Source: an uncultured bacterium
GTDB taxonomy: Bacteria; Eisenbacteria; RBG-16-71-46; CAIMUX01; WJJG01
Reading direction: 5' to 3'
DNA: 64,000 nucleotides
Assembly: GCA_964417675.1 (NCBI GenBank)
Contig: CAYQJL010000282.1
Span: forward strand, 68,077 to 132,076
The position numbers and the translations under genes were made by a program. Shown here piece by piece: positions 5,611-63,840 of this stretch. How positions within the stretch are numbered: position 1 is the stretch's first letter; each line of letters opens with the position of its first letter. The notes beneath the pieces are model-generated. The model was not told the origin of the DNA, made no database searches, and saw nothing but the letters and a program-made list of their open reading frames with translations.

Positions 5611-6921
5611 CTATTCGTAGCGCAGTGCTTCAATCGGATCCTGTTTGGAGGCGTGCCAGGCAGGATAGAGCCCGAAGAATATACCGATCATCGTCGAGAG
5701 AGCCAGAGCAAAAAAGACCACCCCCAGCGGCAAGGCGGCCGGCAGCGGCGACACCCAGGAGACGATCAGGGCCAACCCAGCGCCCCCCAGGATGCCCACC
5801 GCCCCACCAATCAGGGTCAGGGTGACCGCCTCGGCGAGAAACTGCAGCAGCAGATCGCTGCGCCGGGCGCCGACCGCGCGACGCACCCCGATTTCGCGGG
5901 TTCGCTCGCGCACGGAGACCAGCATCATATTCATGATTCCGATGCCGCCGACGGCCAGGGCGATCCCGGAGACCAGGAGCATCACCGCATAGATCGCACG
6001 CGTGAGGTTCGTGTAGAGCGCCATCAGGGTTTCCTGGGTGGTGAGGCCGAAATCGTTGTCTTCCTCGGCCCCCAGCCCGCGGCGGCGGCGCATCAGCGAT
6101 TCGACCTCCTCCCGGGCCATATGCATCTGCGGCTGGGTGTGCGGCTGAATCAGGATGTAGTCCAGGATCTCGCCCCAGCCGCGCTCCTGTTGCAGGGTCG
6201 TGACCGGAACCGCCACGACCTCATCCTGGTTGTTGCCCAGGATCTGCCCCTTGGCGTCGAAGACGCCGATGACCCGGTAGCGATAGGATCCCGCCCTGAC
6301 ATCCTGGCCCAGCGGGTCGATGGCGCCGAAGAGAACATCGGCCACGTCCGCACCGAGGACACAGACCCGTGCCCTCGCGAGCACCTCGCCCCCGGTGAAG
6401 AACCGTCCCCGCGACAGACTCCGATCCTCGACGGCCGGCATGTCGGCGCCGGTGCCCTGGATCGTGATCGGCTTGGTCTCCTCGGCCTGCCAGGCGACCG
6501 TCTGGGTGGTGGCCGCATTCGGACAGACCATCGCCACCGACGCGCACTGCTCGAGGATGGCCTCGGCATCCTGCAGCGTCAAATCCGGGCGCGTCTCACG
6601 CCGCCCGGGTCCCCCGACCTGGATGCTGGCCTCATGCTTGGTCAGGTAGATGCTGCCCGATCCCAGTGACGCCAAGCTCTTCGCCATGCTCCGGTCGAGA
6701 CCGGAGAGAATGGCGGCCATCGCCACGACGGTGCCCACGCCGATGACAATACCCAGCAGGGTCAACGCGCTGCGCAACTTGTTCGCGAGCAACGCGCGCA
6801 GGGCAATCCGAACGCTTTCGGCCAGCAGGCTGGCCGATCCTCGCACGCGCTCGGACCGGGCGAGCCACGGGCGCGGGCCCGCGGTCGGCCTTGGCAGCGC
6901 TGTTGGCGGCAACGACGTCAT
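5611..6921 (-). CDS. ABC transporter permease, MacB/FtsX family (second permease of the efflux operon)
   Basis: Four TM helices, a large periplasmic loop and the FtsX-type C-terminal motif ([24 protein letters not shown]). ORF runs to 7080; I place the start at ATG 6921 (MTSLPP), 7 nt after the stop of the upstream permease. Confidence 0.8.
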
Positions 6922-8170: not shown

Positions 8171-8208
8171 TCCTCGGTGGTCCTCGGTGGTCCTCGGTGG
8201 TCCTTGGC
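8171..8208. repeat. 10-bp tandem repeat, 3.8 copies (TCCTCGGTGG)
   Basis: Direct reading. Sits in the 58-nt spacer between the ABC ATPase stop and the permease start. Confidence 0.8.
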
Positions 8209-8210
8209 CG

Positions 8211-9023
<813 letters not shown>

Positions 9024-16645: not shown

Positions 16646-17953
16646 ATGCCACTGCAAGGAACCATACAGGAGTTCGGGGCACTGGAGACCTTTCAGCTGA
16701 TCGCTCTCCAGCAGAAGACCGGGACGCTCGAAATCTCTACCCGGAGCAGTACGCACAGCTTCATCTTCGAGGGCGGCTTGCTGCAAGCCGCCCACGTGAG
16801 TCCCTTGCATGCCGAGGATCCGCTGCCGCGCTTGCTGGTCGAGGCCGGCTTCTTGAGCGAGGAGGATCTGCGGGCCTGGCTGAGCTTTCCGGGAAACCAG
16901 CCGGTCAACCCCCTCGACCTGTTGCCCAAGCTCTCCTCCATGGACGAAGAGCAACTGCTGGAAGCCTACGATCTCTATGTTCAGACCGTGATGGATGAGG
17001 TGCTGTCCTGGCGTCACGGCCGTTTCCTGTTTCACTCCGGCCGCATCGAGACACCCAGCAAGGTGATCGGTCCGTGGAAGGTCGAAGGCTTCCTCATGGA
17101 AAGCATGCGACGGATTGATGAGCTGACCGATCTGCAGGCCACCGATCTACCCCCAGGCCTGATCCCGCGCCCGCGCCCCCACGCTGCCAGCAACCGCACA
17201 CAGGACCGTTTCGCGCGGGCCGTCCTGCGCCATATCGATGGACGCCTCAGCCTGCAAGAGATCGTAGCCGCCTCGGCCCTCCCGGCCTACGATCTTCACC
17301 GGGCGATTCGTGAACTGCGGGACTCACAACAGATCGAGTTGACCGAATGGATCCCCTCGGGTCCCTGGATGAATTCGATGTGGCGGCGTGGGGCCCGCTG
17401 GAAGTGGATTCCGCTCTCGATCGGAGGCCTGGCCGTCCTGGCCGCGGTCACCGCAGGAACCCAGATGCTCCTCGAGACATGCGCCCCTTCCTGGCATCAG
17501 AACAGCACGTTTAGCTTCCTGTCACCGGTCGCCCGCGCCGCCCGCTCCGACTACTCGACCGCACAGCTCATGGAGGCTTTCCGTGTTCGCCGCGGTCACT
17601 ATCCGCGCTCCCACGCCGAGCTGGTCGAGGATGGCCTGATCTCTCGGCGGGCGGCCCGGAAACTGGCTCTGGACGGCAGCCGCTGGACCCTGGATGCCGG
17701 GGGCCAGACCTACGCCTGGGGCGTGTCGGCCACGACCCCCGACAGCGAAGCCGGCGGCCTTCCGGATGACAGCCCGCGCAGCCGTCCGGATGACGGCCCG
17801 CGCGGCCTCTCCGGGGGACGGCCTGGGGAGCCTCTCCGGGAGACGGACGGACGCACGGACAGCGGTCCGCTCAGCCAGTCGGGTAGCGTTGCGGATCGAG
17901 TACCACACACCGCGGAGCCGGACGGCGCAGCCGCCGACCCACCCAACGACTAG
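16646..17953 (+). CDS. DUF4388 (PatA-like N-terminal domain) protein with one TM helix; function unknown
   Basis: N-terminus GTIQEFGALETFQLIALQQKTGTLEI matches the DUF4388 signature. Mid-protein TM helix; the C-terminus is low-complexity and contains a 21-bp in-frame duplication (PDDSPRSRPDDGPRG). Confidence 0.6.
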   Translation: MPLQGTIQEFGALETFQLIALQQKTGTLEISTRSSTHSFIFEGGLLQAAHVSPLHAEDPLPRLLVEAGFLSEEDLRAWLSFPGNQPVNPLDLLPKLSSMDEEQLLEAYDLYVQTVMDEVLSWRHGRFLFHSGRIETPSKVIGPWKVEGFLMESMRRIDELTDLQATDLPPGLIPRPRPHAASNRTQDRFARAVLRHIDGRLSLQEIVAASALPAYDLHRAIRELRDSQQIELTEWIPSGPWMNSMWRRGARWKWIPLSIGGLAVLAAVTAGTQMLLETCAPSWHQNSTFSFLSPVARAARSDYSTAQLMEAFRVRRGHYPRSHAELVEDGLISRRAARKLALDGSRWTLDAGGQTYAWGVSATTPDSEAGGLPDDSPRSRPDDGPRGLSGGRPGEPLRETDGRTDSGPLSQSGSVADRVPHTAEPDGAAADPPND

Positions 17954-19545
17954 GACAGGATGCGCTCGATCGCCGCGGGCAAGTCAGCGGCCACCAGCGC
18001 GTCGATCGGGGTCGTGGATTCCCGGACGACCTGCGCTCCGTAGCCGGTGCGCACCAGGGCCACGCGGCAGCCGGCCGCCAGACCCGCTTCAACATCCGCG
18101 CGCGCATCTCCGATCATCCAAGAGCGGCGCAGATCCAGATCGAGGGCGGCCGCCGCCGTGCGCAGCATCCCGGGTCGAGGCTTGCGGCAGAGGCAGGGTC
18201 CGGTGAACTCCGGATGGTGCGGGCAGTACAGGAAGCGATCCACAATGACCCCATCCTGCCGGAGCGCCGACGCGAGCGCGGCATGGACCGCCTCGACCTC
18301 CCGGGTCGTGAACAGGCCGCGAGCCACGCCCGACTGGTTGGTGACCACCACCAGTCGATAGCCCGCCTCCTGTGCCCGGCGCAGCGCCACCCCCGCACCC
18401 GGAACCAAACGCGCTCGACCGGGATCGCCGAGATAAGGAATGAGCTCGCACAGGGTGCCGTCCCGATCCAGAAACAGCGCGGGTCGCGACGCCCGCTGCG
18501 CGGCGATGACAGCCTCCATGGCTTCGCGGACGCGATCGACGGAGATCCCCTGCATGCACGGCGCCGGCGTCCGCACCGGGCATCTGCGGGCATAGCAGGG
18601 CGCGCACTCGCACGCCGCCTGCAGCACCTGATGGTGCCGGCCGCGCGGTCCGGTCCAGCGCGGATGGGTCGGGCCGAAGAGCGCGACCACTGGCGTTCCG
18701 ACCGCCGCGGCCATGTGCATCACGCCGGTGTCGTTGCATACGGCCACATCCACGCTCCGCAAGAGCGCGACGCTGCCCAGCAGGCTGGAGCGTCCGGCGA
18801 GATTGACCCAACCAGGCCCCGCGCCATCGCAGATGAGCCTGCCGAGCGTCTGATCGCTGGAAGCCCCGATCACATACCCCGTGATGCCGCGCATCTCCAG
18901 TGCGATCCGCAAGGCGCGGAAACGTTCCACCGGCCATTGCTTCGCGGCCCCATAGACGACCCCGGGACAGAGCGCCACATGGGCGCTCGCCACATGGGCG
19001 CTCTGGCGCCGCGCCGCCATGTTGGCCTCCGCGGCGCATCCGGCCTCCCGAAGAATCCGCTCGGCCTCCTGATCGGCCGCGGGAATCCGCGGCAGGGCCG
19101 GATCGTCCGGACATGCGCGTACCCCCAGACATGCAGCCAGGGACTTGAACTCCTCCACGATGTGTTGATGACCCCGCGACCCGCGAGCGACACGGGTCGT
19201 GAGCAGGAACCCACGGCCCTGCTCGGCCCATCCCACGCGCACGGGCACCGCCGCCGCCGCGCTCAGGAGCGCGGCGGAGAAGGAGGGCGTCATGAGCAGC
19301 GCGCGCGCCGGCCCCAGCCTCCGAATCGCTTGGATGGCCGCGATCCGGCCCAGTCCGGTTCGATCCGGTCCCCGCAACCAAATGCGCTCAGATTGCGGGA
19401 CCAGATGGGCGGTCAGTTCCAAGGGCAGCCGGCGGCCGGCCAGAACCGGTTCGCCCGGATCCTCGGCCAGCAACCCCTCGAGGGCCGGCACGGCCAGGAT
19501 CGCATCTCCAACCCAGTTCGGAAGCTGGAGCAGCGTGCCCATCAT
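17950..19545 (-). CDS. Bifunctional ADP-heptose--LPS heptosyltransferase (GT9, WaaF-like) / D,D-heptose 1,7-bisphosphate phosphatase (GmhB)
   Basis: The N-terminal half is a GT9 heptosyltransferase (NDTGVMHMAAAVGTPVVALFGPTHP...CPV). The C-terminal half is a HAD phosphatase with DRDGT and CxC motifs (ALFLDRDGTL...YCPHHP...CLCRKPRPGM). Start ATGATG at 19545 overlaps the upstream stop by ATGA. Confidence 0.8.
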   Translation of the reverse strand: MMGTLLQLPNWVGDAILAVPALEGLLAEDPGEPVLAGRRLPLELTAHLVPQSERIWLRGPDRTGLGRIAAIQAIRRLGPARALLMTPSFSAALLSAAAAVPVRVGWAEQGRGFLLTTRVARGSRGHQHIVEEFKSLAACLGVRACPDDPALPRIPAADQEAERILREAGCAAEANMAARRQSAHVASAHVALCPGVVYGAAKQWPVERFRALRIALEMRGITGYVIGASSDQTLGRLICDGAGPGWVNLAGRSSLLGSVALLRSVDVAVCNDTGVMHMAAAVGTPVVALFGPTHPRWTGPRGRHHQVLQAACECAPCYARRCPVRTPAPCMQGISVDRVREAMEAVIAAQRASRPALFLDRDGTLCELIPYLGDPGRARLVPGAGVALRRAQEAGYRLVVVTNQSGVARGLFTTREVEAVHAALASALRQDGVIVDRFLYCPHHPEFTGPCLCRKPRPGMLRTAAAALDLDLRRSWMIGDARADVEAGLAAGCRVALVRTGYGAQVVRESTTPIDALVAADLPAAIERILS

Positions 19546-21512
19546 TCCCCCACGGCTCCACGCAGGGACGCGAGCAGCTCCTCGATCTGCGGGCGCTCCG
19601 GCAGATCCGGGTCCAGCCTCAGGGCCCGTTCCAACTGCTCCGCCGCCGCATCCGGGCGCCCCGTATGGGCCAATGACATGCCCAGCAGATAGCACACCGC
19701 CCCTGATCGCGGCCAGGCGCGCTGCACACGAAGAAGTGTCCGCACAGCCCGGTCCCACAGGCCCGCCCGCGTCAGGACCAGGCCGAGGTTGTACAGCAGT
19801 TCGGGTGAATGGGGATGAAGACCGGCCCCCTCGTCCAGGACACGGCCGGCTTCATGGATCCGGCCCAGAGCCAGCTGCGCGTTGGCAAGATTGAGGTAGA
19901 TCCCCAGGCCCCGGTACCCGGCGGTTTGGGCCTCCTCCAACAGCTCGACCGCTGCCCCGGACATACCGGCCTGCGCCAGGGCGCCACCCAGCGCGGCCAC
20001 GAACTCCTCCGGCAGCGCCCCCTCCACCCCGGCCGCCAGCTTGGTTCGCCATTGCGGCGCCAGAGGTTCCCCGTGGTCAGGAGCGAACTGCATCAGCCGC
20101 AACCGGCGGCCGGCGGCGGCACCGAAGGTACGTTCGGACAGCGCGGCGCCCACCGCGCCGGCATAGAAGCGAATGACCGCCTCGCTCCTGTCGTGATCCT
20201 GCACATAGCGCACCACCAAGCGTTCGCTGGCAACGAAGGCGCTCACCGACTGGAACCATCCCCACCAGTAGGCGCCGCGATACTGATCCGGTAGGGTGGC
20301 ATGAAACGGCAGGGCGCAGTAGACCAGCTCGCTCTTCGGGGGCGGCGGGAAATCGACATCGTGCAGGACCAGGCTGCCCGCGGGCAGGGTCTCTTCCAGG
20401 TAGTCCGCCACCTGGCTGCGAACCTCGCCTGGATGGGCCACCGCCGGCAGGCGGCGCACCCCCTCGAACAGCAGCCCGGCGATCGCCAGGCCAAGCAATC
20501 CCGGCGCCAGGTGACGCCGGAAACCTCGGGCGCCGGCCAGTGACCCCGCCACCGCACCGATCTGACCGCAGGCCCACGGCAGGGCGATCAGCGGCGCGAT
20601 GTCACCGGCGAACCCGCTGCGGCTTCCCAACCACACCATCGCCACAACGGCCAGGGGGCGAAGGTCGCCACCCCGCAGCCGAGCCGGCCACCCGGCGGCC
20701 GACGCCAGAAGCAGGATCAGCCCCGCCCCATGAACAGTGCCCAGCAATGGCCACCAGCCCGAATCCAGTCCCATCGGTGTGCCGGATCCGAGCAACCCGC
20801 TGACCCGCGCCTCGCGCAGGAGCCCCGCGGCCCACGCCGCGGGCTGCATCAGCGCCGCGGGGTTGAGCAACCACATCAGAACGACGCTGACGGCCATCAG
20901 GACCGGCCCGTCCCAGCGGCGATCCGACCGGGGCGACAGCAGGCTGCCCGCCGCGGGCAGCCAAAGGAAGGCCCAGGCCCAGGGGCTCCAGGACAGCCCC
21001 CACGCCAGCAAGACGACCTGCAGGGCCCGTCCCGCGGTCCGCGAGCCAAGCAGCAGGAAGAGCAATCCCAACAGCAGGTGGGGATCCGCCCGGAACACGG
21101 CCAGGATGATCAGCGGCGAGACCGCCATCAGATAGGCGCCCCAGCGCGGATTCCAGCGCCCGGATGCGCGGCTCCCCAGCACCAGCATCGCGGCGGCGGC
21201 GGACAGGCCGGCCAGGAGTTGGAACAGAAGCAGGATGGCCTCCGGCGCCATCCCGATCCAGGACAGCAGCGTGGCCGGACCCAGGCGGGGATCGGCCAGG
21301 GGAGGCAGCGACGTCAGGAACCCGACGCCGGTCTCCTCCATCTGCCCGGCCAACTCGATGGCACGCTCCAGCCACGGCGCGACACCCGAACCGCGGCCCA
21401 TCGCTCGCGCCCCCGCCAGCATGAGCAGCAACAGCCCGACCGGCCACCAGGCACGCCGCGGTATCCGCTTTCTTGCCCACCCACTCGCCATACCCACCGT
21501 ACGCCCCACCAT
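19542..21512 (-). CDS. Polytopic membrane protein with C-terminal TPR repeats; possible O-antigen ligase or ArnT-like glycosyltransferase, function not certain
   Basis: 656 aa with at least 10 predicted TM helices, then a soluble TPR-like C-terminus. Co-directional with, and translationally coupled to, waaF-gmhB. Confidence 0.6.
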   Translation of the reverse strand: MVGRTVGMASGWARKRIPRRAWWPVGLLLLMLAGARAMGRGSGVAPWLERAIELAGQMEETGVGFLTSLPPLADPRLGPATLLSWIGMAPEAILLLFQLLAGLSAAAAMLVLGSRASGRWNPRWGAYLMAVSPLIILAVFRADPHLLLGLLFLLLGSRTAGRALQVVLLAWGLSWSPWAWAFLWLPAAGSLLSPRSDRRWDGPVLMAVSVVLMWLLNPAALMQPAAWAAGLLREARVSGLLGSGTPMGLDSGWWPLLGTVHGAGLILLLASAAGWPARLRGGDLRPLAVVAMVWLGSRSGFAGDIAPLIALPWACGQIGAVAGSLAGARGFRRHLAPGLLGLAIAGLLFEGVRRLPAVAHPGEVRSQVADYLEETLPAGSLVLHDVDFPPPPKSELVYCALPFHATLPDQYRGAYWWGWFQSVSAFVASERLVVRYVQDHDRSEAVIRFYAGAVGAALSERTFGAAAGRRLRLMQFAPDHGEPLAPQWRTKLAAGVEGALPEEFVAALGGALAQAGMSGAAVELLEEAQTAGYRGLGIYLNLANAQLALGRIHEAGRVLDEGAGLHPHSPELLYNLGLVLTRAGLWDRAVRTLLRVQRAWPRSGAVCYLLGMSLAHTGRPDAAAEQLERALRLDPDLPERPQIEELLASLRGAVGE

Positions 21513-24500
21513 CTAGAAGTCGTAGCCGATCGACAGCTCACCCTTGGCCTTGCCCGCCCAGCGCGACAGCTCGCTGCGCCGCACCAGATCCCAACGCAGG
21601 ACGAAGATGCCGAGATTGACGGACGCGCGCAAGCCCACGGAAGCCCTCAGATCCTCGAGCAGTAGATCCCCACTGCCCTCGTCCGTCCGGAATGCGCGGA
21701 ACTGCTCGGGCTCATCCCAGGCCGCTCCCACGTCACAGAAGAGCGCCCCACGCACGCCACCGATCAACAGCGGCAGCGGCCAGGCCATGTAGAATGCTTC
21801 GATGAAGGGGAATCGAAACTCCAGATTCACGAACGCGATCTTGGCCCCGTAGAGCGGATGATCCGCGAATCCCCGCAGCGTGTAGGGCCCTCCGAAGATC
21901 AGCTTGCGATCCTCCTCGCCCCACTCGCCCGCAAACACGCCCCGCAGGGCCAAGGCGTAGTAACGATGAATGTTATGGTAGCGGCGGTAGTCCAGGGAGA
22001 ACCCGTATGAGGCCCGCTGCCCGATGGTCGCGTAGGCCGACGCACGTGAGCGGCGCCCGGCCAGTGGTCCGGTCGGCCCCCAGAGAGCGGAGTCATACAC
22101 CCAGGCCATCTCCGGGCGCAGATACCACGCATCGCTCTTGCGCTCGGTCCACCTGCAGTTCCAGGGATCGTTCGCACCCTCGTCGGCACAGGTGTAGAGG
22201 TAGCGTTTCTCCTGAACGATGTCGAGGCCGGCCTCGAACCGGCGGAACCGCGAGACCGAATGCAACCACACCGCCCGCATGCCCCGCAGAAGGCGCTGCT
22301 CGAAATCCTCCAGATAGCCCGGGACACCGCTGTACCCGTACCCCGTCCAGTACTGGTACAGACCGATGCCGAAGGAGGGCCGCGACCCCAGATCGCTGTA
22401 GGCAAGCAGGTAGTTGCCCTCTTCCAGGGAGCCGGCCACATCGAGGGCCAGCTGGAGGTTCTTCTCGCCCAGGATGTCGGAGAAGACGAGCATAGATTGG
22501 GCCAACACGCCGAAGCCCGACGCGTACAGGCCCCCGGCCTGGGCATAATCAATGGACAGGCGTGGTCTGTATGGCCGGTCTTCCACCTCGAGTGAGTCGG
22601 TCAGCTCGAACGTCTCCTCGTACAACGATCCAAGATCCACGTTCTTCGACGCGGGCGGATCAAACCGAACCGGCCGCGCCGGGGGTTCGGGCGGCACCGC
22701 CAGCGCGGCCGCCTCACCCTCCACCCCGATCTGGCCCGCGGACCCCTCGGCGGGATCCTCGACGGGACCCCGCGCGCAAGCTTCAGCAGAAGCCTCGGCG
22801 GGCCCCTCGGCGAAGGCCTCCCCAGCAGCCTGGTCGTCCCGCGATGCCCAGACCGTGGCCTGATCGAGGGCGCCTAACGGATCCCGCATCGCGTAGAGAT
22901 TCAATCCCCCGTCTTCGTACACGCTGAAGACGACCCGGTGGCCGTTGTCCGACAGGCTGGCCGCGGTGCCGGTCTCCGTGATGCCGGAGACCCCGGTCAT
23001 CAGGTCAGTGAGCTGGTAGTCCTGGTCGGTCTGCAGGTCGCGCACGAAAAGGTTGGCGGTGCCGGTGCGGTCCGAGACGAACAGGAGATGACGCCCGTCG
23101 GGAAACCACTGCGGGCTGACCTGCTTGCCGCTTTGATTCGGCAGCAGGTCCATGCGGCCGCTGCTCACGTCCAGCGTGGCAAGACGCCAGGGCGAGAAGG
23201 ACTCGTCTTCCCGCGCGCTCACGTAGCCCCGGTCGGTGACGAACACCAGGGTCGTGCCGTCCGGCGACCAGGCCGGCTGATCCGCCGACCAGCGGTCCTG
23301 CGTCAGCGCCGACACCCTGCCGCTCAAACGTTCGACCACATAGAGGTTCGAGCGCGCCTCGCGCAGGCCGACGAAGGCGATCCGGCGGCCGTCCGGTGAG
23401 AAACAGGGCGAGACCAACTCATCCACATCCGGCCGGTAACGTTCCACCACCTCCCGGGTGCGGACATTGACAACGATCAAGTGCTCGCGGCCACCGCTGC
23501 GCGTCACGAGAACGATGTGATCGCCGTCCGGCGCCCAATCGATCGCCGAGCGGAAGAAGCGAAAGGTCTCGAACTCCTCCTTCCGTTGGCCGCGCAGCAG
23601 GCGCCGTTCGTGGCTGCCATCCAGGGCCGAGGCCAGGTAGACGTCCGTGTAGAGAGACTCATCCGAGATGTAGACCATCTCGCCGCCACCGGGCGAAACC
23701 GCCGGGCTGATGTAGAAGGCGGCATGGCGTTCGGCGTGATTCGTGAGCCGACGTCCATAGGCGGAGGCCTTCTTGCGCCCCAGCAACTCCGGCAGGTAGC
23801 GATGTCTCAGCGTGTCGGCCCAATCCTCCGATAGCTTCGCAATCGTCAGTCCGATCGACTCCGACGTTCCACGCTCGAGGTTGTTGCGGCGGGCCAGCGA
23901 GCGAAACCACGCACCCAGCATCTCATCCCCGAACTGCTCCCCGATGTGCGCGACCAGCGACTGCCCGAACCGATACACGCGGATGTCGCCAACCCGCGCG
24001 AGCTGCTCCACACTGAGCAGGCCGCCGCTCATCAGCGCATCCCGCATCCACATCCGCGTATGATGGTTCATACCCGGTGTGCTGAGGTACTCGGCCATTC
24101 CCTCCATGACCCACAGCGGGGGCGCCCAGGCAATGGGATCCAACGACCGTCCGAAGCCGGAGGTGCTGAGGATGTCGATCTGAAACGCATGCACCAGCTC
24201 GTGGGTGATGACGTGATCGAGGTCCGCGTGGGATCCGGTGAATGGCACGACCACTCTGCGCTTGAGCAACTCGGTCACTCCGCTGGTGCCTTCACCGATC
24301 AACCCGCGGATGGCCCGGGTCTCACGGAATTCGGTCTGGGAGGCATAGAACAGGAAGGGAATCGGCTCGGCGATCTCGTGATCGAGAATCCGGCTCAGGC
24401 GCTCATAGGCGCGCTCTGCCAAGAATAGTGCTTCGAGGGCGGTCTCGCGCTCTTCCAGATAGTAGTGGAAGTCGAAGTTCGGACTGTGCAGGACGCGCCA

Positions 24501-24650
24501 ATCACGCTGGTGGCGGTCCACCTTGTTCTGACCAAACGCCTGTGCCTCCCCATCGGTCACGTTCATCAGCAGGGTGAGCGCCGCCAGCAGCAGTAGACGC
24601 AGACCATTGGCGCTTCCTGTCCGACCCATTCCCATTGGCCGCCTCCTCAT
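21513..24650 (-). CDS. Large secreted/outer-membrane protein: HExxH metalloprotease-like domain + TolB-like PD40 beta-propeller + C-terminal Omp85/surface-antigen-like beta-barrel
   Basis: Signal peptide from ATG 24650 (MRRRPMGMGRTGSANGLRLLLLAALTLL). HELVH zinc motif, PD40-type repeats (SPDGRRIAFV, SPDGTTLVFVTDR, FPDGRHLLFVSDRTG), and a C-terminus ending ...GELSIGYDF, typical of an OM beta-barrel terminal aromatic. The ORF is also open in-frame upstream through the 12-bp repeats to 25076. Confidence 0.75.
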   Translation of the reverse strand: MRRRPMGMGRTGSANGLRLLLLAALTLLMNVTDGEAQAFGQNKVDRHQRDWRVLHSPNFDFHYYLEERETALEALFLAERAYERLSRILDHEIAEPIPFLFYASQTEFRETRAIRGLIGEGTSGVTELLKRRVVVPFTGSHADLDHVITHELVHAFQIDILSTSGFGRSLDPIAWAPPLWVMEGMAEYLSTPGMNHHTRMWMRDALMSGGLLSVEQLARVGDIRVYRFGQSLVAHIGEQFGDEMLGAWFRSLARRNNLERGTSESIGLTIAKLSEDWADTLRHRYLPELLGRKKASAYGRRLTNHAERHAAFYISPAVSPGGGEMVYISDESLYTDVYLASALDGSHERRLLRGQRKEEFETFRFFRSAIDWAPDGDHIVLVTRSGGREHLIVVNVRTREVVERYRPDVDELVSPCFSPDGRRIAFVGLREARSNLYVVERLSGRVSALTQDRWSADQPAWSPDGTTLVFVTDRGYVSAREDESFSPWRLATLDVSSGRMDLLPNQSGKQVSPQWFPDGRHLLFVSDRTGTANLFVRDLQTDQDYQLTDLMTGVSGITETGTAASLSDNGHRVVFSVYEDGGLNLYAMRDPLGALDQATVWASRDDQAAGEAFAEGPAEASAEACARGPVEDPAEGSAGQIGVEGEAAALAVPPEPPARPVRFDPPASKNVDLGSLYEETFELTDSLEVEDRPYRPRLSIDYAQAGGLYASGFGVLAQSMLVFSDILGEKNLQLALDVAGSLEEGNYLLAYSDLGSRPSFGIGLYQYWTGYGYSGVPGYLEDFEQRLLRGMRAVWLHSVSRFRRFEAGLDIVQEKRYLYTCADEGANDPWNCRWTERKSDAWYLRPEMAWVYDSALWGPTGPLAGRRSRASAYATIGQRASYGFSLDYRRYHNIHRYYALALRGVFAGEWGEEDRKLIFGGPYTLRGFADHPLYGAKIAFVNLEFRFPFIEAFYMAWPLPLLIGGVRGALFCDVGAAWDEPEQFRAFRTDEGSGDLLLEDLRASVGLRASVNLGIFVLRWDLVRRSELSRWAGKAKGELSIGYDF

Positions 24651-24779
24651 GGCCTCATGCTCCAGGGCGCCCACCAGCGTCCCACCCCTGGCTGACGGGG
24701 GGACAATCCTCAGAAACCGCCGGAAAACAAACCAGTTCCGGATTGCACCGTTCCGGCTCAGGAATGAGGTTTCCAACTC

Positions 24780-24960
24780 CAGGCATGTCTTCAGGCACAT
24801 CTCCAGGCACCTGGCTAGGCACGTCTCCAGGCACACGTCTCCAGGCACGCGTCTGGGCACCTCTCCAGGCACGTCTCCAGGCACGTGTCTGGGCACCTCT
24901 CCAGACATGTGTCTAGGTGCGTGTCCAGGCACGTCTCCAGGCACGTGAGGCACGTGTGTG
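24780..24960. repeat. Imperfect 12-bp tandem repeat array (consensus AGGCACGTCTCC, about 14 units)
   Basis: Direct reading of the sequence. Intergenic, between the GGDEF gene stop (25115) and the protease gene start (24650). The array preserves reading frame (VPGD/VPRH tetrapeptide repeats in the six-frame ORF). Confidence 0.85.
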
Positions 24961-25114
24961 CGCATGTGTCTTTGCAGACTCGCAGGGTGACCCGAGGAGG
25001 TCAAGGGCGGGCATCGCCGAGCACAACAAGGCCGAGCAACCCCCCATCCATGCGGGCGGCTGTGACCGGAGCGCAACCGAAGGCCGGTGGGGTATGCACG
25101 GACGGGACGCGGAT

Positions 25115-26281
25115 CTAGGCTGCCCGGCTCTGATCCTCCGGATCCGGGAGATCCGCGGAATGGGGCGGGCGCGGCGGCTCCAGGCGCGCTCTCTCGCCGG
25201 ATCGATCGCGAGAGGGCCCAACATCGGGGGCGGGCGCGACGACCACCGTGTTGCGCCCCTCCGCCTTGGCGGCAAACAGCGCTCGGTCGGCTGAGCCCAG
25301 TAGCGCCTGATAGCTCGTCCCATCCCGCGGAGCGGTCGCCACGCCGATGCTGCAGGTGATGCCGCCAAAGGTCGCATGGCCGACCCGTGCCCGCTCCACC
25401 GAGCCGCGTAGGTGGTGGGCCTGGGCCAGCGCCTCTTCCTTGATCGAACCGGGCAGGACGATCAGGAACTCATCCCCGCCGTACTTGGCGACCCAGCCGT
25501 TGCTATCGAGGCTGTCGCGCAGCACGCGTCCGACGGCCGCGAGCGCGGCCGAAGCTTCCAGGTGCCCGAACTGGCCATTGTAGGCCCGCAGGTTGTCGAC
25601 ATCGAGCATGAGCACGCTGAGGACACCCCCGTGCCGCGGGATGCGCCGCAAGAGCTTGACCAGGGTCCGCTTCAGGTAGCGGTAATTGTAGATGCGGGTC
25701 AGTTCATCGGTCACCGTCTCGCGCCGCAGGCGCTCCAATCGACCCGAGATCCGTCCGTGAATCGCGAGGTGATCGGCCACCCCCGCTAGCACGGCCTCCT
25801 CTTCATGCGTGAACCGCAGGGAACCGGTTGCGCGCAAGAACGCCAGGCGCAACGGCCGCCGGTCGAGGCCCAACCCCAGGGTCATCACCGGCAAGGCGGT
25901 CTGTTCTTCCGGCCTGTCGCCGGCCGCCTGGTTCTCGCCCCATCCACCCGGACTCACCCGGACTCCCCCTCGGCCCGGCAGGACCAGGCCTCTGCGAACC
26001 CGCCCATCCGGGGGCAGCGTCCGCAGGCAGGCCAGCCAGCTATCCCACCACGTCGATATCTTGCAACCCGGACCGCGCAGCGACACCTTGCTTCCCGACC
26101 CCCCGACAAAATGGGGTACGTTCTGGCCGGGCCCGAGGAGGTGCACCTGATTGGCAGCCAGCACGTCCCCGAGGGAAGCGATGAGCCGCTCAAGGGCGGC
26201 CGCCCGCTTCTCATACGGATAGGGCGTGGCCGCATGCAGGTCGGCCAGCAGCCCCATGAGCTCGTGCTGACGATGGTTCAT
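25115..26281 (-). CDS. Diguanylate cyclase with an N-terminal GAF-like sensor domain
   Basis: The C-terminus has the GGDEF signature (RIYNYRYLK...AKYGGDEFLIVLPG). Start chosen at ATG 26281 (MNHRQHELMGLL). Confidence 0.8.
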   Translation of the reverse strand: MNHRQHELMGLLADLHAATPYPYEKRAAALERLIASLGDVLAANQVHLLGPGQNVPHFVGGSGSKVSLRGPGCKISTWWDSWLACLRTLPPDGRVRRGLVLPGRGGVRVSPGGWGENQAAGDRPEEQTALPVMTLGLGLDRRPLRLAFLRATGSLRFTHEEEAVLAGVADHLAIHGRISGRLERLRRETVTDELTRIYNYRYLKRTLVKLLRRIPRHGGVLSVLMLDVDNLRAYNGQFGHLEASAALAAVGRVLRDSLDSNGWVAKYGGDEFLIVLPGSIKEEALAQAHHLRGSVERARVGHATFGGITCSIGVATAPRDGTSYQALLGSADRALFAAKAEGRNTVVVAPAPDVGPSRDRSGERARLEPPRPPHSADLPDPEDQSRAA

Positions 26282-26458
26282 GGCTCCTCCCCCCAGCAAT
26301 GGGCAGGATGCATGCCAGTGGGCAGCAGGACGCCGAACATGCACACTGTCAAGACGTTGAAGCGGTGGTGACGGCCGGAGTGGGACGCTGCCGTGCGGAT
26401 TGCAGCGGCCGATTCGCACAACGCAATCGGGCAGCCCGGGGGGCTGCCCGACGATCTT

Positions 26459-26531
26459 ACGCCCGGCGCGATTCGAACGCGCGACCTTCTGCTCCGGAGG
26501 CAGACGCTCTATCCAGCTGAGCTACGGGCGC
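26459..26531 (-). tRNA. tRNA-Arg (anticodon CCG)
   Basis: Hand-folded cloverleaf: acceptor GCGCCCG/CGGGCGT, D-arm GCTC..GAGC, anticodon stem TCTGC/GCAGA, loop CTCCGGA giving anticodon CCG, T-loop GTTCGAATC. 73 nt; CCA is not encoded. Confidence 0.85.
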
Positions 26532-31886: not shown

Positions 31887-31986
31887 GGCTCTCTGCGGCC
31901 GGTCATCGTCCGTTGCGGCCGGTCATCGCCCGTTGCGGCCGGTCATCGCCCGTTGCGGCCGGTCATCACCCGCTGCGGGCGGTCAT
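31883..31986 (-). promoter_or_regulatory. Chain of five overlapping 7-codon mini-ORFs generated by a 20-bp tandem repeat, ending in an ATGA overlap with the folD start codon
   Basis: On the minus strand the 20-bp unit GGCCGCAACGGGCGATGACC repeats five times. Every copy carries ATG ACC ... CGA TGA, so each 7-codon ORF (MTGRNGR; variants MTARSG and MTGRREP) stops with a TGA that overlaps the next ATG. The last TGA overlaps the folD ATG (CCATGACA). Confidence 0.7.
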
Positions 31987-32016
31987 CGCCCTTTGCGGCT
32001 CGACGCGGCCAGGCAG

Positions 32017-36338: not shown

Positions 36339-36493
36339 GAACCCTTCCCCCTATGTCGGATGAAGGAACGAGTATCTTAGGGGAACATGCCTGAACCTGT
36401 CAACTACATGCTTTCGAAGCGCCTGCCCGGTCCCGTCCGGCCCGGATCCCGTCGGGCCCGGGATCGAATCCCATCCGCCCGTCGAGCCTGGGA

Positions 36494-41828: not shown

Positions 41829-41912
41829 CACCCCACAATCCGGTTGCCGCACGCGCTTCGGTTGCCGCGCGCGCTTCGGTTGCCGCACGCGCTTCGGTTG
41901 CCGCGCGGGTTG
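41829..41912. repeat. 18-bp tandem repeat, about 4 copies (CGCTTCGGTTGCCGCRCG)
   Basis: Direct reading. Lies in the divergent region between the PAP2-M23 gene and yfiH. In frame it would encode (RQPKRA)n if the upstream ATG at 41888 is used. Confidence 0.85.
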
Positions 41913-49269: not shown

Positions 49270-51618
<2,349 letters not shown>

Positions 51619-57476: not shown

Positions 57477-57570
57477 AACGGGCAGCCGGCAAGGATGCCT
57501 CGACTCCCGCCCACGGGCAGCCGGCAAGGATGCCTCGACTCCCGCACACGGGCAGCCGGCAAGGATGGCT
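57477..57570. repeat. 36-bp tandem repeat, 2.6 copies (ACGGGCAGCCGGCAAGGATGCCTCGACTCCCGCMC), a candidate enhancer-like array
   Basis: Direct reading. It begins 5 nt after the stop of the upstream gene and lies about 180-280 bp upstream of the sigma-54 -24 element. Each unit contains the GGCA-N4-TGCC and GCCGGC dyads. Confidence 0.8.
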
Positions 57571-63721: not shown

Positions 63722-63840
63722 CTCTCGAACAGACCGCTATACGACAGGCCCGAGGCGCTATACGACAGGCCCGAGGCGCTATGCGACAGGCCCGAGCCGC
63801 TATGCGACAGGCCCGAGCCGCTATACGACAGGCCCGAGGA
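63722..63840. repeat. 21-bp tandem repeat, 5 copies (CTATRCGACAGGCCCGAGSCG)
   Basis: Direct reading. Lies between tRNA-Leu and the HDAC gene start. On the minus strand every unit carries an in-frame TAG. An ATG at 63844 opens an 8-codon uORF (MLLGPVV). Confidence 0.85.

Follow-up and report, generated by a model that had tools for sequence, protein, structure and literature searches.

When the Omp85/TpsB superfamily was split into ten subfamilies, one of them was termed 'WD40-Omp85' (Heinz and Lithgow, 2014; Front Microbiol 5:370, PMC4104836). Supplementary data of that study list architectures in which PF07676, PF00930 and PF10647 stand with PF01103 (Table S2 therein), and Phyre2 results for members such as H1XQ58, D0MEQ5 and B3QRX6, with a barrel match to 4k3b or 4c00, a TolB match to 2w8b or 2ivz, and a 'best aminopeptidase hit' to 1z5h, 4kxd, 4fgm or the collagenase 4ar1 at 98.7–99.4% confidence (Table S3 therein); the main text treats only the propeller, as part of a 'BamA-BamB fusion', and leaves the peptidase and its conserved active site undiscussed. 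More recently, the metalloprotease, WD40-like and patatin-like Omp85 subfamilies were described as 'not well characterized' (Hanson et al., 2024; PMC11116518). Searches of the literature on Omp85 combined with PD40 and peptidase domains, and of later work on WD40-Omp85, turned up no study on the function of this subfamily; the three-domain architecture is on record since 2014, and its function is uncharacterised. Here we analyze a gene of this architecture, called below the barrel-protease gene, on the minus strand of a 64,000-nt stretch of contig CAYQJL010000282.1 (assembly GCA_964417675.1, an uncultured bacterium from the Eisenbacteria lineage). This whole stretch is referred to as the window, and all positions are given in its numbering unless another locus is named.

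Domain architecture and family membership

A protease, a propeller and a barrel are joined in one polypeptide, as a preliminary description of the window had proposed, and domain scans with Pfam and NCBIfam, an AlphaFold2 (AF2) model and Foldseek agree on this point (Table 1). The AF2 model of the full protein, built with a 100-sequence alignment, has a mean predicted local distance difference test (pLDDT) of 85.5 and a predicted template modelling score (pTM) of 0.86, and consists of a mixed alpha/beta and then a helical domain (residues 45–285), approximately six four-stranded blades (residues 300–590), and 16 long strands (residues 694–1037). Conservation was assessed in an alignment of the protein with 99 full-length relatives of 38–80% identity (below, the 100 sequences), and in a second, larger set of family members (221 proteins, each 880 aa or longer).

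In sequence terms, the signature of clan MA gluzincins, that is, HExxH with a downstream Glu, is conserved family-wide. Residues H145, E146, H149, E178, E182, Y221 and R222, the last two within DIRVYRFGQ, are invariant in the 100 sequences, and the strict pattern HExxH...E[GA]x[AS]E is present in 216 out of 221 long members, while four of the remaining five deviate at the [AS] position only, and one is N-terminally truncated. A pseudo-enzyme reading was considered and rejected, because the catalytic residues are invariant. Among the N-terminal domains of 27 family members scanned with Pfam, 26 match Peptidase_MA_2 (best E = 4.8e-11), 24 match Peptidase_M9 (best E = 7.6e-8), and all 27 match BSP. 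A separate AF2 model of residues 34–300 (pLDDT 84.7) finds its best Foldseek matches among clostridial collagenases (peptidase domains of G, T and H; family M9, TM-score about 0.6), followed by M1 aminopeptidases and the M30 enzyme lugdulysin; these matches include 4ar1, 4ar9 and 7zbv from M9, and 1z1w from M1 (tricorn-interacting factor F3, the same protein as 1z5h). In the alignment of the family profile with PDB entries, Grimontia collagenase 7wss paired HEYVH with HELVH, EGVAEY with EGlAEY, and RIYRWG with RVYRFG.

The propeller is recognized by Pfam as PD40 (E = 1.2e-22) and DPPIV_N (E = 1.9e-12), and Tricorn_N and Tricorn_2nd appear in precomputed Pfam lists. The NCBIfam TolB equivalog TIGR02800 matches it with E = 3.5e-31; the score is 108.6 bits (cut-off 343), and the match covers the propeller part only (profile positions 192–345). 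The family profile compared with the Protein Data Bank (PDB) yields TolB at E = 8e-28, and in the Foldseek search of the PDB TolB structures come at the top, with BamA next. The following linker of about 60 aa varies in length, and its sequence has diverged even in relatives at 75–78% identity.

The barrel is a true, POTRA-less member of the Omp85 superfamily. Pfam Omp85/Bac_surface_Ag (PF01103) matches the C-terminal region above threshold (27.2 bits with a gathering score of 24, E = 3.6e-6), the matches to NCBIfam Omp85_fam and BamA are weak (19.6 for BamA TIGR03303, the cut-off being 297), and the family profile reaches BamA of F. nucleatum (9ccg) with E = 1.5e-5. The 16 strands have pLDDT mostly above 85, and Foldseek aligns them with barrel-only BamA crystal structures at TMt 0.62–0.67. 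Two short motifs, TLRGF and FCDVG, are the Omp85 loop-6 and strand-13 signatures known from BamA and FhaC: in the 100 sequences conservation reaches at least 90% for R921, G922, F966 and D968, a simple regular expression finds the FxDxG-type motif in 196 out of 221 long members, and 216 of these 221 end in F, Y or W. The BamA-type barrel with an aromatic end, as originally described, is thus confirmed. POTRA domains (PF07244, PF08479) yield no Pfam match even at E<=1, and the AF2 model has no beta-alpha-alpha-beta-beta unit of the POTRA type between the propeller and the barrel. The autotransporter-like barrel suggested as another option does not hold, as no autotransporter Pfam model matches and the 16 strands differ from the 12 of type Va, Vc and Ve barrels; neither patatin, for which Pfam gives no match, nor a POTRA is present as in type Vd (PlpD-like) proteins.

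A word-indexed protein search returned 6385 matches, and the best 120 of them are nearly all 900–1200 aa long and cover 92–100% of the query. With one genome scanned per species, relatives are present in at least 557 species genomes from about ten phyla; among the matches listed are Candidatus Eisenbacteria (the closest), Latescibacterota, Gemmatimonadota, Calditrichota, Zixibacteria, Marinimicrobia, Bacteroidota, Chlorobiota, Glassbacteria, and Acidobacteriota (Aminicenantes, Vicinamibacterales). When only the peptidase domain serves as the profile, 1093 proteins (50%-identity clusters) out of 1.84 billion cluster representatives match at E<=1e-30, and the number rises to 3287 at E<=1e-10; the best 150 are mostly 900–1200 aa long with the domain at residues ~25–300, and the shorter ones resemble fragments from contig ends. 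Far from the uncommon architecture initially supposed, this is a large and widespread family already catalogued in 2014.

We also weighed the possibility of a misassembled metagenome bin, in which genes for a protease, a TolB-like protein and an Omp85 protein had been fused although they are separate. The source is a metagenome-assembled genome, and a low-complexity linker could in principle mask a join. However, the same full-length gene, 100% identical, occurs in three independent assemblies (the window, Logan SRR2989655 and JGI 3300001533), full-length colinear homologues are found in hundreds of species, including those on complete chromosomes (CP070777.1, NZ_OZ250143.1) and on contigs of 4.6 and 6.5 Mb, and the pTM value indicates a coherent multidomain protein. 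Hence the gene is not split in relatives, the fusion is neither rare nor artefactual, and a chimera can be practically dismissed. As a propeller precedes a POTRA-less barrel, and the N-terminal domain matches the same families as in Table S3 of Heinz and Lithgow (2014), the protein almost certainly belongs to the WD40-like Omp85 subfamily. For the window itself this is of little consequence, the gene being a routine member of a catalogued family. What is added here is that, across a very large family, both the zinc-peptidase site and the motifs of Omp85 are conserved: the family is widespread in environmentally dominant phyla, and every member examined retains both. The database labels 'Tol biopolymer transport system component' and 'BamA/TamA family' are corrected accordingly.

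Table 1. Features of the barrel-protease locus (window coordinates; residues are numbered from the ATG at 24635).
Feature	Position	Strand	Evidence and remarks
Coding sequence	21513..24635	-	1040 aa and stop; Shine-Dalgarno sequence, identical database protein P0001, GC3 0.82 in gene body
Sec signal peptide, residues 1–33	24537..24635	-	MGMGRTGSANGLRLLLLAALTLLMNVTDGEAQA/FGQNKV; AQA/F signal peptidase I site; no lipobox Cys
Gluzincin (clan MA) zinc-metallopeptidase domain, residues ~34–290	23766..24536	-	Family Pfam hits, AF2, Foldseek
HELVH zinc-binding/catalytic motif, residues 145–149	24189..24203	-	Invariant in 100 sequences
E178 in WVMEGMAEY, probable third ligand	24102–24104	-	Invariant in 100 sequences
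Six-bladed TolB/PD40-type beta-propeller, residues ~300–592	22860..23738	-	Pfam, NCBIfam, profile, Foldseek, AF2 strands
Disordered low-complexity Ala/Glu/Pro/Gly-rich linker, residues ~598–662	22650..22844	-	pLDDT <50 for 601–659
16-strand Omp85-type beta-barrel, residues ~685–1040, ending in Phe (...SIGYDF)	21516..22583	-	Pfam, Foldseek, AF2
Loop 6 TLRGF (Omp85 motif 3, (V/I)RG(F/Y)), residues 919–923	21867..21881	-	Between predicted strands 11 and 12
FCDVG (Omp85 motif 4, (F/G)xDxG), residues 966–970	21726..21740	-	On predicted strand 13
Degenerate 12-bp tandem repeat, ~14 units, higher-order 36-bp period	24777..24946	-	Tandem Repeats Finder (TRF); 142–311 nt upstream of start codon
Putative promoter TTGACC-N17-GAGTCT, preceded by TGC	24976..25004	-	Conserved in L086 and L001
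GGDEF diguanylate cyclase gene, upstream neighbour	25115..26281	-	PF00990 E=4.4e-32; 388 aa by gene callers

Location and possible role of the peptidase and propeller

The reading that we favour, with moderate confidence, is that of a periplasmic, outer-membrane-anchored active peptidase from the WD40-like Omp85 subfamily, encoded by an ordinary, vertically inherited envelope gene. Sec would export the protein, and the C-terminal Omp85 barrel of 16 strands would be embedded in the outer membrane; the flexible linker of about 60 residues would tether a predicted-competent zinc metallopeptidase of the M9/M1-like type, together with the propeller, on the periplasmic side. Propellers filter or bind extended polypeptides in tricorn, DPP-IV and acylaminoacyl peptidases, and the propeller may do the same here for the active site. 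The role could be processing or quality control of envelope proteins beside the Omp85 barrel, by analogy with BepA at the machinery for beta-barrel assembly (BAM), and the barrel, apart from anchoring the protein, may also add an activity of the Omp85 type.

We infer the location, the class of substrate and whatever the barrel does apart from anchoring; as to the N-terminal module, a periplasmic position is most likely, rather than self-export. The N-terminus of Omp85 barrels is periplasmic, the first strand of every solved one starting on that side, which argues for a periplasmic module. The preliminary description had suggested instead a self-anchoring or self-exporting surface protease. In a type Vd-like form of self-export, the barrel would carry the peptidase and propeller, as its own passenger, to the cell surface, where extracellular proteins would be degraded. 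The order of parts (N-terminal enzyme, long disordered linker, C-terminal barrel ending in Phe) agrees with this, the peptidase is structurally closest to secreted collagenases, and surface delivery was thought possible for other enzyme-Omp85 fusions (Heinz and Lithgow, 2014; PMC4104836). However, the protein has neither a POTRA, unlike type Vb and Vd systems, nor a 12-strand autotransporter barrel, and the retained pair of loop-6 RGF and strand-13 FxDxG, lumen-filling in solved Omp85 structures, argues for a BamA-like filled lumen and not an open conduit. The passenger would comprise about 560 stably folded residues, including a tight propeller and a helical domain, and Omp85-fused propellers of the TolB type have previously been interpreted as periplasmic. 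Finally, the sole proposed precedent for export in cis, PlpD, has been refuted: the N-terminal enzyme domain of this prototype is periplasmic, and can no longer be classed among the secreted passengers of type Vd (PMC11116518). Thus we consider self-export unlikely.

A different emphasis would make the barrel the functional core, that is, an alternative insertase or translocase, with the propeller (BamB-like) and the peptidase as accessory or proofreading modules. Loop-6 RGF and strand-13 FxDxG are kept family-wide, the family was compared to a BamA-BamB fusion (PMC4104836), the zinc protease BepA is described as docking on BAM in quality control (PMC13478230), and in Gemmatimonadota the gene is adjoined by the housekeeping genes of RsfS, S6, L9 and YchF, as expected of a core gene. 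On the other hand, POTRA domains, used by all characterised Omp85 insertases and translocases to receive clients, are absent, and there is no linked client or TamB-like partner gene. This makes the insertase reading doubtful, if somewhat less so than self-export; it overlaps with the anchored-peptidase explanation and differs from it only in how much the barrel does.

Several observations weigh against the anchored periplasmic peptidase. The protein analyzed here scores 21.7 bits with Peptidase_MA_2, under the cut-off of 32.4, and so the peptidase assignment leans on family-wide matches, motif invariance and the fold; the HExxH metalloprotease-like domain initially described is borne out by its conserved active site and M9/M1-like fold. 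The long disordered linker would also be compatible with threading through a pore. No neighbour is shared across phyla beyond clade level, as judged by tblastn of four window neighbours and all-against-all clustering of open reading frames from 80 loci, and hence no substrate or partner is indicated. The parallel with quality control by BAM and BepA is a functional guess by analogy.

On the anchored-peptidase reading one may tentatively go further, to a single-polypeptide station for outer-membrane biogenesis or quality control, where the propeller would capture unfolded or stalled envelope proteins and the gluzincin site would cut them; we regard this extension as possible, though not probable. 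If true, it would unite in one protein what in Proteobacteria is divided among BamA, BamB and BepA, and might matter in the FCB group, Gemmatimonadota and Acidobacteriota, whose sets of BAM accessory proteins differ. For cultured carriers of the gene, the resulting hypothesis is that of an outer-membrane-tethered periplasmic peptidase, possibly acting in quality control.

Start codon, 5' leader and neighbouring genes

The open reading frame at 21513–25076 comprises 1187 codons when counted from a TTG, and is indeed open upstream through the 12-bp repeat, as noted initially; the length of 1046 aa given then is not reproduced, as the first ATG past the repeat (24650) yields 1045 aa, and the ATG at 24635 yields 1040 aa. 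The latter is preceded, at a distance of 6 nt, by the Shine-Dalgarno sequence GAGGAGG (24642–24648), and is the start used in the database protein P0001, which is 100% identical and 1040 aa long. The context of this start is kept at two loci with orthologues, L086 and L001 (protein identity 78% and 75%, respectively), as part of a conserved element GC(G/A)TG(G/A)GGCC..GAGGAG.CGGCC.ATG that holds both the Shine-Dalgarno sequence and the start codon.

The predicted signal peptide, whose presence was noted initially, is of the classical Sec type with an AxA site; it was read straight from the sequence, and AF2 gives a low-confidence helix at residues 10–21. The mature N-terminus FGQNKV (residues 34–39, 24519–24536 on the minus strand) is nearly invariant in the 100 relatives, with AF2 confidence of about 65, and this invariance suggests a specific contact or a role in processing. 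In the L086 locus (~280–327) a 24-bp in-frame duplication lies within the signal peptide (LPGLAGLSGLPGLAGL). In L001, an in-frame 36-bp repeat in 2.2 copies (6039–6117) separates the conserved Shine-Dalgarno sequence and ATG from the core of the signal peptide (RERNLVRRLSLA/RERNLGRGLSLA), which implies either an unusually long n-region of the signal peptide or translation from an internal GTG or ATG near 6139.

An N-terminal extension starting from the TTG at 25076 and running through the repeat had been proposed. This candidate was rejected by codon-position GC content, by the position of the signal peptide, and by the conserved Shine-Dalgarno sequence and ATG located downstream. The GC fractions at third (GC3) and second (GC2) codon positions are 0.67 and 0.59 between the TTG and the ATG at 24635, compared to 0.82 and 0.47 in the gene body, so the upstream stretch does not look coding; moreover, with about 140 aa added in front, the signal peptide would come to lie inside the protein.

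The other element conserved in the intergenic DNA, which has otherwise diverged, resembles a promoter, and is found with the same spacing in L086 (~66–95) and L001 (~5847–5875). A generic scan of 24500–25250 for sigma-70 promoters and terminators found no promoter, and one terminator-like match, in the coding region and on the wrong strand. We therefore treat TTGACC-N17-GAGTCT as a candidate promoter on conservation alone, in a phylum whose promoters are undescribed. As the repeat is situated between this element and the start codon with its Shine-Dalgarno sequence, it falls in the 5' leader; this leader measures about 330 nt here and about 120–125 nt in the relatives. Folding of the 341-nt leader shows no excess of RNA structure (z = -0.97), and Rfam, applied to 21300–25300, gives only a sub-threshold match to a Drosophila long non-coding RNA family over a CACACA stretch, taken as chance.

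The repeat is degenerate (TRF: period 12, 14 copies, 71% matches, 2% indels), with only six units within one mismatch of the consensus. The description of an in-frame 12-bp repeat preceding the gene stands as far as the array and the open frame are concerned, but the units are not uniformly in frame: one of them is 14 bp long, at which the translated repeat shifts its register from VPGD... to CLET..., and since not all units are in frame, it is by chance of composition that no stop codon interrupts the frame. Three assemblies of the population (the window, L005 and L087) have one and the same copy number, and across 550 intergenic bp they differ only by a T/C single-nucleotide polymorphism at 24905, inside a repeat unit. 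No equivalent array is present in L086 or L002, and the repeats of L001, a 10-bp array after the GGDEF stop codon and the above 36-bp duplication after the conserved ATG, are unrelated. Metagenome contigs scanned for exact matches to the flank of the repeat yielded nothing, and the JGI copy was reached via the protein cluster.

The window as a whole holds 11 tandem arrays in 64 kb (TRF score >=60). The ten further ones have unrelated units of 9–35 bp, and several are located at gene boundaries (8171–8204, 8987–9023, 17757–17846, 18973–19003, 31894–31999, 36425–36461, 41841–41904, 49346–49410, 57478–57567, and 63735–63839). Five array periods are not divisible by three, which makes those arrays non-coding. 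The genome seems unusually rich in short minisatellites, and their number suggests that it habitually carries them where the DNA is unconstrained; the 12-bp repeat looks like a non-coding minisatellite in the 5' leader.

These data also bear on the earlier proposal of phase variation, in which the number of 12-bp units would alter an N-terminal extension or the position of the promoter and thus switch expression. The open frame, the placement of the repeat between the putative promoter and the start codon, and the unrelated tandem duplications in the 5' or signal-peptide regions of relatives speak for it. Known slipped-strand switches, however, consist of near-perfect short units, unlike this degenerate array with its 14-bp unit, and the constant copy number in three assemblies, the absence of the array from relatives, the non-coding composition upstream of the ATG, the buried signal peptide, the conserved start downstream of the repeat, the abundance of arrays in the window, and a leader with neither stable RNA structure nor an Rfam family all argue against it. 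Phase or extension variability is weakly refuted, and we hold it to be very improbable.

The GGDEF cyclase gene is located directly upstream on the same strand, as reported before, and is conserved as a neighbour within Eisenbacteria only. A tRNA-Arg(CCG) gene (26458–26531, minus strand) lies between recN and the GGDEF gene; it limits the 5' end of the latter, and the 434-aa open reading frame starting from GTG at 26419 is thus probably over-extended. Downstream on the minus strand, the first gene (19542–21512) encodes a 656-aa protein with a hydrophobic N-terminal half (multiple transmembrane segments) and C-terminal tetratricopeptide (TPR) repeats, and the second (17950–19758), a fusion of a family-9 heptosyltransferase with a HAD-type (GmhB-like) phosphatase; both are probably co-transcribed with the barrel-protease gene. 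The order GGDEF, barrel-protease gene, TPR protein, heptosyltransferase-GmhB fusion is conserved in Eisenbacteria and suggests an operon for biogenesis of the lipopolysaccharide core or envelope; such neighbours speak for the periplasmic topology, although this context is weakly informative.

Comparison with known systems

The barrel shares with BamA and TamA the 16 strands, the loop-6 (V/I)RG(F/Y) and strand-13 (F/G)xDxG motifs, and the aromatic C-terminus, but the POTRA domains are absent, and the periplasmic part is replaced by the peptidase, the propeller and a disordered tether; the NCBI label 'BamA/TamA family' on these proteins is generic. The peptidase resembles M9 collagenases and M1 aminopeptidases in its thermolysin-like fold, HExxH, the Glu about 29 residues downstream, and the conserved Tyr motif. 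It differs from them in that the sequence identity is 11–15%, the Pfam scores for M9 and M1 are under the cut-offs, collagen-binding and activator domains are lacking, and the M1 exopeptidase motif GxMEN is not found in this family, which has a specific GEGTxGxTE in its place.

The six-bladed PD40 propeller is shared with TolB, tricorn, DPP-IV and acylaminoacyl peptidases, TolB providing the best matches in both sequence and fold, whereas the N-terminal alpha/beta domain of TolB is missing. In the propeller-gated peptidases the catalytic partner is a serine peptidase and here it is a metallopeptidase, so that gating would apply to this protein by analogy. BAM with BepA offers a periplasmic HExxH zinc protease beside an Omp85 barrel (PMC13478230), and the present protein might be regarded as its covalent version, although BepA, an M48 protease that carries TPR repeats, is a polypeptide of its own and belongs to an unrelated family. 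PlpD, where an N-terminal enzyme domain is likewise fused to an Omp85 barrel, is the best precedent for the location of this domain in the periplasm; it has a patatin lipase, one POTRA and a short linker, compared to the metallopeptidase, propeller and long disordered linker without a POTRA observed here.

The closest system is the WD40-like Omp85 subfamily itself, with the same POTRA-less Omp85 barrel, PD40/TolB-like propeller and N-terminal aminopeptidase- or collagenase-like domain, and overlapping phyla (Caldithrix, Rhodothermus, Chloroherpeton, Bacteroidetes). The architectures do not differ, and the gene described here is a new member of this subfamily, from an Eisenbacteria-like metagenome-assembled genome.

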